From contig CBDCJV010000002.1 in the NCBI GenBank assembly GCA_965217895.1, forward strand, positions 832,001 through 896,000: a stretch of 64,000 nucleotides of DNA, read 5' to 3'. How positions within the stretch are numbered: the first letter of the stretch is position 1; every line of letters starts with the position of its first letter. This DNA is from Waterburya sp. GTDB lineage: Bacteria; Cyanobacteriota; Cyanobacteriia; Cyanobacteriales; Xenococcaceae. Positions 6,925-10,450 of this stretch are shown piece after piece. Both the position numbers and the translations under genes were made by a program. Below the pieces are notes generated by a model that saw nothing but the letters and a program-made list of their open reading frames with translations, was not told where the DNA came from and searched no databases.

Positions 6925-7527
6925 TTAGCCAACTGAAGAGAAATAAACTTTAGATTTTACTGGATCGGGATTCATGGTTTGATCTCCTTCTTGCCATCCC
7001 GCAGGACAAACTTCATTGGGATTATTCTGTACGTGTTGAATCGCTTTTAAGGTACGTAAAGTTTCATCGACGCTACGACCAAAGGAAAGGTTGTTAATCG
7101 TTGCGTGTTGAATTATGCCCTCTTTATCAATAATAAATAATCCTCTTAAAGCTACTCCAGCTTCAGGATCTAAAACATTATAGGCATTGCTAATTTCTTT
7201 TTTAATATCAGAAACCAAAGGATAAGCAATATCACCAATACCGCCTTCTTTGCGCTCAGTTTGCATCCAGGCTAGATGAGCAAATTCACTATCTACGGAT
7301 ACGCCCAAAATTTCTGTATTTAAAGACTCAAACTCTCCATGGCGATCGCTGAAGGCGATAATTTCAGTAGGGCAAACAAAAGTAAAATCTAAAGGATAGA
7401 AAAACAAGACAGTATACTGACCACGATAATCAGAAAGCTTTACCGTCTTAAATTCTTGATCGAATACAGCCGTAGCCATAAATTCAGGTGCTTCTTGCCC
7501 TACTCTTAAACATCCTTCACTGTTCAT
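6925..7527 (-). CDS. 2-Cys peroxiredoxin (AhpC/TSA family)
   Basis: [14 protein letters not shown] and EVCPAGW; likely start [11 protein letters not shown] at 7527. Confidence 0.96.
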
Positions 7528-8631
7528 AATTAACACAATATTTTTTTAGCAATCTGTAAAGCCAACGAGCCGTGTAGCCAGTTGTTTTTCCAATAATCAA
7601 TTTACCAAACTTTCGCTTGACTTGGTTTTTGTTTAGTGAACCAACGCTAACATTATTGTTCCAACTAGCTTTAAACATGGCTTCCATTAACATTAATTGA
7701 TTAGTTAATTCTTGTCCATCGATATAAGGCTTAAGATTAGTAGACACTTAAATGCTGCCATACTCTCAAACTTTTCGATGGGATAAACCTGAGATAGCAG
7801 TAACGCTCTTAATGTCAAATTAAAGTTGAATTGGTCAAAAACCAAGTTGTATTGTTTAAATTGAGAATTGTAAACTAGGATAAACAATTCTTTCTCAATT
7901 GCTAAATGCTGCAAATCAATGTCATCAATAGTTTGCGCTAGCCAGCGGGTAAATTGACTGATAGAAATGCCATAGCTCTTTGCCACACTTTTTTTGTACC
8001 TACTACCCCAATAGTTACTATGGTTTTTTAACTGTCTTTTTCTACCAGCTAGCCAGCACCACAACGCCCGTCTACCATCGCTTAGACGATTTGTGGCAAC
8101 ACCAATAGCTTCTGGAAACTCACGAGCTCACTGTTGTCTTGCACGATTAAGCAACGGGTTTTGAAACCTAGCCAAAGATTTTAACTGCAAAAACAGTTCT
8201 CGCATACGTGCTATTGGCGTAGGATTAAAAGAGATAAAGTAATTTTGTTTGCCATAATAAATATGAGCATAGCAAGCGATCGCCATCGCCTCTGCTAAAT
8301 CGTTTTTATCAGGTAAGTTGTTTTGTCGTCTGTAGCTAACAGCTTGGGTATGTCCTACCCAAAGAACTTCTACCTTTTCTCGTTCGGCAATATGCGCTAC
8401 TAACCATGAGTAGTGCATACCTGTCGGTTCTAATGCAATCGCATCAGGCTTTTGAGCTAATAAGCCAGCTATACCACTGTCGGTGAAATAAAACGTAAAC
8501 TCATCTAGTTTAGGATCTTTACTGCGTTGCTTTGATTCTTTTTTCCAATAAGCTTTTACGTCATTGGGTAAAGTCTCAAGTGACCAACAAACAGCACGAT
8601 CCTTGCAAATATCAATGCCGATAATTTTCAT
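7517..8631 (-). pseudogene. IS110-family (DEDD) recombinase/transposase, degenerate
   Basis: MKIIGIDICK...IALEPTG...PDKNDLAEA is a DEDD RuvC-like domain; the in-frame TGA at 8128-8130 reads on as AREFPEA...LWCWLAG; frameshift or deletion near 7745 after AAFK; C-terminal KRKFGKLIIGKTTGYTARWLYRLL helix. Confidence 0.8.
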
Positions 8632-8964
8632 ATTTAATTGTCGTGGTGCTACATAACACAGGGATTTATCGCGTCTTACCAATGTCAATAAGGTCAAGAA
8701 TCTCCCTAGATCACTCGTTGCGATCAATTCACTGTCAAACCTAGACATGGAGTAGCCAGAAAAAAGTAGCTCAGTCAGGAAGGATGAAAACCTTACGCTC
8801 ACTTCTGTAGGAAACTTACACTACTTTTTTTAAGGCGGCTTTTTGAATGATTAAAAACGCGCCTTGCTACTAACTGAGATTACTCCCAGGCGAAAAGAAT
8901 CGCGAACACTTCCCGCGACATCAAATATCTTGATGTTTTGATCGCCCGTCCAAGGCAAATCTCA
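8632..8964 (-). ncRNA. Structured non-coding end of the IS110 element (candidate bridge/seek-type RNA)
   Basis: Many nested stems (8889-8893/8942-8946, 8900-8906/8912-8918, 8918-8924/8930-8936, 8770-8778/8870-8878, 8832-8837/8860-8865); G-U pairs fit a minus-strand transcript; lies directly 5' of the IS110 gene. Confidence 0.55.
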
Positions 8965-9159
8965 TCAGGCGGTTATTTTTGTTGTGGCTTTAATACGGGA
9001 GATGATTGATACATCAATATCATTTTCTGTGATGGTTAAAAAGCCTTCATCAAAAGCAATGCAGTAAACCCATTTACCTTGATATGAATAAGTTTTGCTG
9101 ACAACCTTTCCTACAGTTCCAGGAATGCGATCGCCAATCTCATATTTCGGTTTGTTCAT
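8965..9159 (-). CDS. Small hypothetical protein (MNKPKYEIGDR...)
   Basis: 64-aa ORF; its N-terminus recurs at 10522. Confidence 0.5.
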   Translation of the reverse strand: MNKPKYEIGDRIPGTVGKVVSKTYSYQGKWVYCIAFDEGFLTITENDIDVSIISRIKATTKITA

Positions 9160-9164
9160 ATCCG

Positions 9165-9326
9165 TTACTGTTGTCGAAGCTTGCTTAACATAAATTTGAT
9201 TTCAGCTAAACGCGATCGCTTTTGTTCGATTGTCAAAAATTGAAGTTCTAGTAGAGCATCAATATATGCCTCCTGGACTACTTCAGTTGTTTGATACGGA
9301 AGATGTTCAATTACAGTTACCAGTAA
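9165..9326 (-). pseudogene. 3' part of a small ORF cut by the IS630 insertion
   Basis: The ORF-track start (9350) lies inside the IS630 terminal repeat; the remaining frame reads LLVTVIEHLPY...KLRQQ. Confidence 0.4.
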
Positions 9327-10450
9327 TACCAATTCTCCATGAAGATGCAATAAATTAATAATGGTGACACGGTGAGGAAAAATGGGAAATAAATTTCAGG
9401 TAGAAGTTAAAGAAAGTAAAGAAGAATTGAGACATCGATTGCATCATTCAGTTACCGCTAGCAGTAGAGAAAGATTACAGATGCTGTATTGGCTAAAACA
9501 AGACGCGATCGCGCTCGTGAAAAGAACTATCTCAAAAATTGAGTAGGGATGAATCCACCGTATATCGATGGCTTAAAAGATATCGCCAAGGAGGTCTTTC
9601 AAATCTACTGTCTGTAAAAACTCCTCCAGGCAAGAAAAGTAAAATTGACGCTCAAGAAATGAATCAGCTCAAAGAACGTTTAAGTCAACCTCAAGGATTC
9701 AAAAGTTATGGAGAAATTCAAGAGTGGCTCAATCAGGAACTTGGTATAGATCTTGCTTACAAAAGCGTACATAAAATTGTTCGCTATAAACTAAAAGCCA
9801 AACCGAAAGTACCACGTCCACAAAGTCCCCAAGCCAAACCTCAAGTTCAAGATGCCTTTAAAAAAAACTAAAAGACATCATAAAAGTGTTAATTAACTAT
9901 TTGGCTACAGGTCAACCAGTTCGTTACTGGTGTCAGGATGAAAGCCGTTTGGGACTTAAGACATTAGCAGGAAAAATAATTACTTTACAAGGTATCAAAC
10001 CTCAAGGAACTATGGGATGGCAGAGAGACAACTTTTATCTTTATGGGCTAGTCGAACCTTTGAGCGGAGAAAGTTTCTTTTGGGAGTTTTCTCATCTTGA
10101 TAGTCTTTGTTTCCAGCATTTTTTAGATCTGTTTTCTCAAAACTATGCCGATAGCCTAAATTTAATTCAAATGGACAATGGCAGCTTTCATAAATCTCAT
10201 CAATTAAAATGGGCTGATAACATCATTCCAATTTTTCAACCTGCTCATAGTCCTGAACTTAATCCCATCGAACGTTTATGGGAACATATTAAAAGTAAAT
10301 TAGCTTGGGAATACTGCGATAGCTTAACTCAGTTAAGAACAAAATTAAAGCAGGTTCTTGATTCTATTTCCGAAGAAATGATTGCTTCTATTTGCGGATG
10401 GGACTATATTAAATCCGCTTTATTAAGTGCAACTTCATAGAGAATTGGTA
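9327..10450 (+). mobile_element. IS630-family insertion sequence; transposase 9382-10440, frameshifted
   Basis: TIRs TA-ccaattctccatgaagatgca and tgcaacttcatagagaattgg-TA; HTH ORF plus DDE ORF (QDESRLG, MDNGSFH, PAHSPELNPIERLW); A8 slippery site 9860-9867; extra frameshift at about 9510-9522. Confidence 0.92.

Follow-up and report, generated by a model that had tools for sequence, protein, structure and literature searches.

What kind of RNA precedes the IS110-family gene at this locus, and what does that RNA serve? The window analysed here is a stretch of 64,000 nucleotides from Waterburya sp., in which an earlier note had proposed that roughly 330 nt upstream of the gene form a bridge RNA of unusual, multibranched architecture. 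We consider it probable that this region is the 5′ non-coding part of an IS110 bridge recombinase that acts as the integrase of a provirus-like element, and that a hammerhead ribozyme at the tail of an operon frees the guide RNA from the transcript. Our sequence comparison establishes the hammerhead fold and core, the two-loop fold, the matching of guides to junctions, the element ends and the phage-type cargo; from these we infer transcription, cleavage, the dependence of recombination on cleavage, and virion formation. The features of the locus are collected in Table 1.

Table 1. Features of the locus in window coordinates, in minus-strand order from the operon tail to the host gene, followed by the inserted transposase pieces
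Feature	Positions	Strand	Remarks
Early-operon last small gene, 64 aa	8965..9159	-	ORF; stop codon is the UGA within the hammerhead core 8968-8962
Type I hammerhead ribozyme	8913..8972	-	Predicted cut 8917|8916; A instead of core G12 at 8939
First hairpin 3′ of the cut	8890..8916	-	Loop predicted to form a pseudoknot with hammerhead loop II
GTAA-loop hairpin	8874..8889	-	Pair probability 0.90-0.98; paired changes in L018
Inserted dispersed repeat hairpin	8832..8865	-	Outside the conserved RNA; 8 genome copies; gap in L018
Target-binding loop domain	8760..8831	-	Left target guide 8811-8803, right target guide 8787-8780
Donor-binding loop domain	8690..8743	-	Left donor guide 8736-8728, right donor guide 8707-8699
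3′ tail able to pair with right donor guide	8660..8666	-	Directly before recombinase start; pair probability 0.89 uncut, 0.40 cut
IS110-family recombinase pseudogene	7520..8631	-	Stop at codon 168 (8130-8128); ~90-codon internal deletion at 7747
Right junction	7510..7527	-	Element end, AA core (7517-7516), right target
Host gene, presumably peroxiredoxin-like	6925..7527	-	ORF; target site is its first codons
IS630-like transposase pieces	9382..10440	+	DDE_3, HTH_32, HTH_33; interrupt early operon of window copy

With respect to the gene itself, the IS110 assignment made earlier holds: the window gene is an IS110-type DEDD recombinase (profile match PF01548, E 0.002), and its intact relatives match both PF01548 and PF02371. 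The element copy in the window is nonetheless a dead remnant, because G12 of its ribozyme is A, its gene contains a stop, and the catalytic serine is absent, the corresponding motif having been lost through the internal deletion. Contigs from the same sample are identical to the window across 7565-9012, which confirms the sequence of both the recombinase pseudogene and the hammerhead. Three such recombinase loci are present in this genome, and while their proteins are only ~28% identical to each other, identity rises to 87-92% in the upstream gene and over the first ~55 bases of non-coding sequence; near-identical copies of the 64-aa gene precede the two other loci. The interrupted host gene we take, from its sequence and without a family scan, to be peroxiredoxin-like. 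Beside the IS630 pieces, a truncated gene on the minus strand (10986-10409), presumably metal-transporter-like, continues into another fragment of the small operon gene, and this site is probably where the rearrangement that split the element had its breakpoint.

The first departure from the RNA as originally outlined concerns its 5′ boundary, since a start at 8964 cuts through the core of a hammerhead that the earlier note had missed. On the minus strand the elements follow in the order stem I, CUGAUGA, stem II, the GAAA position, stem III and GUC, ending at the predicted cut. Taken alone (61 nt), this segment folds into the hammerhead form; in the full-length thermodynamic model, the pair probability of stem I is only 0.05. 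Rfam gave no match at gathering level anywhere in the window, and an E-value scan returned RAGATH-1-hammerhead weakly (18.4 bits, E 2.3, gathering 56.3), with a second sub-threshold hammerhead match at 29.8 bits against a gathering score of 56.3.

The case for the hammerhead comes from relatives, for which we assembled 106 distinct loci whose sequence upstream of the gene reaches 380 nt or more. A strict descriptor, loosened to admit a bulged stem II, recovered a hammerhead in 80 of these loci (67 plain, 13 with a branched stem II) and in none of 530 base shuffles. Relaxed inspection of 24 remaining loci added seven intact and two degenerate cores, bringing the loci with an intact core (C3 U4 G5 A6 N7 G8 A9, G12 A13 A14 A15, U16 H17) to 87 of 106. 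An alignment of 35 hammerheads has 88% of its cells paired, with changes on both sides at 12 of 19 pairs; none of 500 shuffles was as high, and slid controls reached 31-47%. Stem I contributes little covariation because it is mostly invariant. The predicted pseudoknot between loop II and the loop of the first hairpin is paired in 69% of cells, with two-sided changes at three of its four pairs, and in a weaker test a run of at least five pairs occurred in 41% of 49 loci, as compared with 18% for swapped and 10% for shuffled partners. Loop contacts of this kind speed hammerheads, according to the available text of PMC3088659.

The placement of the motif is also specific. A scan of 596,774 upstream bases from 64 loci gave one loose match, as did 19 ordinary IS110 loci from seven genomes, and the whole of this genome holds 18 matches, three of which are the recombinase loci. 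In a quick tree with only four outgroup rows, the hammerhead is present on all main branches of a recombinase clade that is separate from those four ordinary IS110 proteins. Nonetheless, the hammerheads of L058, L062 and L090 look decayed, as judged by eye, and about 12 of the 106 loci show no trace of one. Several of the latter (L046/L075) have intact genes and matching junctions, and the hammerhead therefore seems dispensable in some lineages.

In terms of catalysis, G12 is the general base of the hammerhead. It forms part of the strict core (PMC3088659, available text) and is A in both the window copy and copy B, whose ribozymes are thus probably inactive; copy C (C2:3923811, minus strand) is canonical. 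A third such tag, at L168, proved to be a false call on re-inspection. Separately, in six hammerhead-less loci (L049, L051, L057, L139, L153 and L168) the position ahead of the target loop is taken by a long hairpin with imperfect pairing. These hairpins have no Rfam match, and an Rfam E-value scan of 10 hammerhead-less loci found no other ribozyme family; RNase III may cut here, or the hairpin may be a cleaving motif of another kind.

The folding energy of the region is only slightly better than that of shuffled controls (z -1.75, 5 of 100 as good) and unconvincing alone. It did not distinguish the strands, the opposite one folding equally well (z -1.87, 3 of 100 shuffles as good). A covariation-supported structure was found among homologs. 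Specifically, two internal-loop domains pair in 91% of cells in 17 sequences of the window's sub-clade, a value reached by none of 500 shuffles. The target-loop fold was also recovered by unaided prediction, and the outer stem of the donor loop has a pair probability of 0.01-0.24 in the full-length thermodynamic model. From first to last guide the core occupies 8811-8699, or 113 nt (family median 116 nt), and is, on this comparative evidence, of the standard two-internal-loop form rather than a new loop architecture. The additional length of the RNA is accounted for by the 5′ hammerhead, two small hairpins, the dispersed repeat hairpin and the 3′ tail.

These results bear directly on the reading of the region as one multibranched guide RNA of 330 nt, its middle domain containing a switch or pseudoknot, which we regard as highly improbable. 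It is true that every arm named in the earlier note occurs on the minus strand, and that the RNA region exceeds the 177-nt IS621 guide (PMC11208160, in the part available). The helices said to close the domains, however, have pair probabilities of 0.00-0.09 and are lost in the closest relative, one of the enclosed hairpins is a dispersed repeat, and the fold that is conserved consists of the two internal loops. In the first proposed domain, acatcaa/ttgatgt does form, as hammerhead stem III, and ggcga/tcgcc (0.00-0.09) and tcgcggg/ttcgcga (0.01) do not. The closing helices of the second fare no better (ggagta/tactcc 0.00-0.02, ctcagttag/ctgactgag 0.00); the ggagta and ctcag arms of the closest relative pair instead within a GTAA-loop hairpin, where paired changes are seen. 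The A-rich/T-rich pairing thought to compete with them exists (0.94-0.96) as the outer stem of the target loop and not as a competitor. In the third domain the helices are supported, with gatcgc/gtgatc at 0.87-0.93, aggga/tccct at 0.89 uncut and 0.40 cut, and cttatt/ggtaag at 0.36-0.72.

The dispersed repeat, a hairpin with a variable loop (window 8863-8834), has eight copies in G000:C2; it has been inserted repeatedly in non-coding regions of this kind (five of the examined loci) and is absent from the closest relative, L018. Its insertion explains the 105 nt that separate the cut from the first guide in the window copy. At the other end of the RNA, the 3′ tail covaries with the right donor guide: among 47 loci with guide T, the tail has CACC in 36 and CTCC in none, and CTCC is found in 15 of the 26 with guide A. 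The tail is perhaps a switch between message and guide states. For the handshake dinucleotides, counts of 18 versus 15 and 13 versus 10 of 49 loci show no clear bias toward pairing after strand exchange.

If the two loops are those of a bridge RNA, their guides should spell the ends of the element that carries them, and this was found across the family. Guides were called from the RNA alone, with junctions unseen, in 85 of 110 loci; calling failed in the other 25, and in several loci the calls were out of register. In a first pass, four or five of five right-flank bases agreed with the locus's own guide in 40 of 64 loci, as compared with 3.7% for swapped guides. With register tolerance the agreement was 45 of 56 loci (73 testable) against 4.6%, and a perfect match was seen in 38 of 56 against 0.3%. 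Of 19 loci with 19 kb of upstream sequence, 14 had a left end that matched their own guide (0.63% for swapped guides), at distances of 9.3-17.6 kb from the gene; among loci with at least 8 kb, a set in which many ends fall past the flank, the figure was 16 of 43. The five left-end misses comprise three miscalled guides (L063 and L064 were found otherwise) and two swapped halves in G020. The tolerant junction rules (T at -7, the left-end motif) were learned from earlier output and relatives are non-independent samples; even so, the margins between own and swapped guides are large. The element ends have only the AA core in common and, across many unrelated host sites, vary with the RNA guides. 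Thus the proposal that this RNA is the element's bridge RNA, with loop sequences that vary together with insertion sites, is borne out. A further observation is that the base seven before the core is nearly always T in both target and donor, whatever the first base of the guide (A in the window's sub-clade), which suggests a position read by the protein.

For the window element, the left donor guide matches the right end at 7524-7516, and together with the right target guide it spells the junction at 7523-7511, which is unique in the genome and has AA as its core dinucleotide. Three relic ends elsewhere in the genome stop at the same donor sequence. No left junction was found with contiguous right-donor pairing; one emerged when a single bulged guide base was allowed, the right donor guide then matching a left end at C2:4439468. 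This left junction (C2:4439461) is on the opposite strand at a distance of 3.6 Mb, with lysis genes after it, and the gene before it is also the gene before the empty site in 4 of 30 loci, those of the closest relatives. The distance, the opposite strand and the shared upstream gene together indicate that the element has been split by rearrangement.

The target itself can be seen in related genomes, where the window's guides match the empty site. Orthologues of the peroxiredoxin-like gene are present in 34 of 38 genomes of the genus, and the site at its start, compared in 29 other genomes of the genus, is empty and exact in 16 and slightly different in 10, with an insertion of the same kind in two and one ambiguous case. 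At the right end of the element (window 7527-7510; also G000:C2:3749360, L204 and L214), the interrupted host gene is given a new start codon. The empty-site contig of a related strain departs from the window at 7518; we rejected it as evidence of excision, as it is closer to related strains than to the left flank of this genome.

Several smaller observations concern occupied sites and rearranged ends. In two other genomes an insertion also sits in the peroxiredoxin site, and L196 combines the element-type start of the host gene with the native promoter region, perhaps as a scar. A 330-bp mini-element consisting of left and right ends only lies at G000:C2:3749048-3749374, and left ends are nested ~25 bp apart at C2:4439461-4439530; these arrangements suggest that a new end was added on exchange of the recombinase module. 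In G020, the left end of L058/L091 and that of L062 each match the target guide of the other: two proviruses have swapped halves, and the chromosome was rearranged in the process.

Bounded in this way, the elements measure about 8-19 kb and share a conserved gene order: a lysis/structural block, a tyrosine recombinase, a repressor, the early operon, the hammerhead, the bridge RNA, the recombinase and then host DNA. Family scans identified endolysins of four kinds, a repressor and fibre-like proteins. One element, L066 (G160:C1), is of inovirus type, with Rep_trans and Zot/pI and the same module of hammerhead, bridge RNA and recombinase, and the module therefore appears to move between unrelated viruses. 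Because the bounded elements carry endolysin, repressor and in one case inovirus genes, we take the recombinase to be a proviral integrase. Family scans and structure search identified no capsid, portal or packaging motor in most elements, L066 alone having Rep_trans and Zot/pI. For two conserved element proteins, Foldseek comparison of predicted folds with viral models gave no match at E <= 0.001, and a protein atlas search gave no usable match. A search of viral contigs returned no relative with single-protein queries and one with an alignment query. The recombinase is present in 58 of 251 genomes of the order, and the 80 named loci kept from 264 species-collection matches are all cyanobacterial. 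Carriers in culture include Calothrix sp. PCC 7716 (L158, L159) and Scytonema hofmanni UTEX 2349 (L189).

An alternative is that the elements are cargo-laden IS110 transposons or phage satellites, with the small tyrosine recombinase (190-217 aa, in 14 of 15 elements) as perhaps the real integrase. Most of them yielded no capsid gene, and large cargo-bearing IS110 loci have been described (10.64898/2026.08.14.744561, available text). We judge this explanation improbable, although the elements may yet be phage satellites. The ends track the RNA guides at many unrelated sites that share the AA core alone, and the inovirus-type element has guide-matched ends even though it has no tyrosine recombinase. 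Moreover, the conserved order of endolysin, repressor and fibre-like genes is unlike plasmid cargo.

Taking the recombinase as the integrase of a provirus-like element, we envisage the following sequence of events. The early operon would be transcribed through to its far end, ~10 kb inside the element, where the hammerhead at the stop of the last operon gene would cut itself. This cut would release an RNA of defined 5′ end that holds the guide and, after it, the recombinase message. Its two loops could pair with a 6+AA+5 target and with the element ends as they meet in the excised circle; crossing over by the recombinase would take place at AA. In such a scheme hammerhead cleavage would couple recombination to transcription of the operon.

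This type of role must be weighed against a more conventional one. Hammerheads are known near prophage integrase genes, and the link may therefore be to the integrase message and not to the guide. The ribozyme would then be an ordinary prophage message-processing element that uncouples integrase expression, through stability or translation, from the early operon, and the bridge RNA, situated between ribozyme and gene, would work whether or not the cut is made. We think this unlikely, yet it has real points in its favour. Prophage integrase genes commonly have hammerheads nearby, and blocks of genes are flanked by them (PMC3088659), and extended IS621 bridge RNAs are still active (PMC13626964), as far as the available text of each source goes. 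In 69 of 80 loci the ribozyme starts where the last operon gene ends (the upstream frame stopping within -40 to +60 of the core), and pairing with the 3′ tail can hide the right donor guide close to the start codon, a hint of control at translation. On the other side, the 64 loci measured place the cut 32-75 nt ahead of the first guide; its distance to the start codon is 148-311 nt, and the pseudoknot partner sits in the first hairpin of the released RNA. In addition, other element genes have no flanking hammerheads, and in one lineage the ribozyme stands between the two loops.

How the guide would be made also sets these elements apart from IS621. There, in the available account, joining of the ends in the circle creates the promoter from which the guide is transcribed (PMC11208160), and read-through bridge RNAs work too, about two-fold less well when extended 5′ and 3′ (PMC13626964, available part). 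The bridge RNA here lies 9-18 kb from the left end, typically ~10 kb inside the element, a position that does not suit an IS621-type circle-junction promoter, and such a promoter cannot directly start the guide. A weak test for sigma-70-like sites on the bridge RNA strand across 7400-9500 found none. The two systems are otherwise alike in general plan. As with IS621 and ISCro4 (IS622) (PMC11208160, in part; PDB 8wt6, 9t56), DEDD and Tnp domains are accompanied by a bridge RNA 5′ of the gene with two internal loops, a variable target loop and a conserved donor loop, 9-nt left guides, a 2-nt core and discontinuous right-donor pairing. The protein is very distant from the solved ones (profile E 2e-5 and 2e-3), the core is AA and not the CT of IS621, the element measures 8-19 kb as compared with about 1.3 kb, and a hammerhead stands at the 5′ end of the guide.

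Several of these components have been described separately, at least in the portions of the literature available to us: IS110 genes at phage ends, hammerheads near prophage integrases, and large IS110 elements. In Neisseria Nf and Thermus filamentous phages, an IS110 gene at the provirus end is thought to integrate and excise the phage (PMC11437467), and the inovirus-type element L066 resembles these; most of the elements here differ in having endolysins and no Zot/pI. The accessible text of that source mentions neither a guide RNA nor a ribozyme, whereas here the ends are tied to guides by covariation. The ribozymes resemble the bacterial and prophage hammerheads of PMC3088659 (RF00163, RF03152) in their full core, three stems, predicted pseudoknot and nearby integrase gene, but fall below Rfam gathering scores and are fixed directly before a guide RNA; transposases and cyanobacteria go unmentioned in the available text of that paper. 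The expanded IS110 elements of 10.64898/2026.08.14.744561 are likewise IS110-bounded and far above 1.5 kb, their cargo being, in the text available, mostly plasmid-derived with resistance genes, unlike that found here; the words ribozyme, hammerhead, prophage and cyanobact have 0 occurrences in the accessible main text. As far as their available text shows, 10.64898/2026.10.21.760802 covers bridge RNAs and hammerheads without joining the two, and PMC4524478 is unrelated to the pairing. In the literature searched, with subscription papers outside its scope, we found no publication that combines a hammerhead with a bridge RNA. The new part thus appears to be a ribozyme-capped guide serving a putative proviral integrase.

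We give roughly even chances to a broader proposal, namely that these elements are undescribed and widespread cyanobacterial proviruses with an RNA-programmed integrase and a hammerhead-matured guide, in which the cut ties integration and excision to the early operon, ~11 guide bases set the site, and one lineage splits the guide into target and donor RNAs. If true, this would assign a definite function to many bacterial hammerheads, the roles of which are mostly unknown, and would provide a natural route to a bridge RNA without a junction promoter. The loci also supply dozens of natural guide/site pairs for a distant, AA-core recombinase clade that moves 8-19 kb in cyanobacteria, pairs that are useful for cyanobacterial genome engineering, and they point to an unclassified group of cyanobacterial proviruses.

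The lineage with a divided guide is represented by two Coleofasciculus loci, L127 (9270-9991) and L149 (580-984), in which the hammerhead separates the target loop from the donor loop, accompanied in L127 by a small reading frame. Cleavage by a hammerhead at this position would yield a naturally split bridge RNA.
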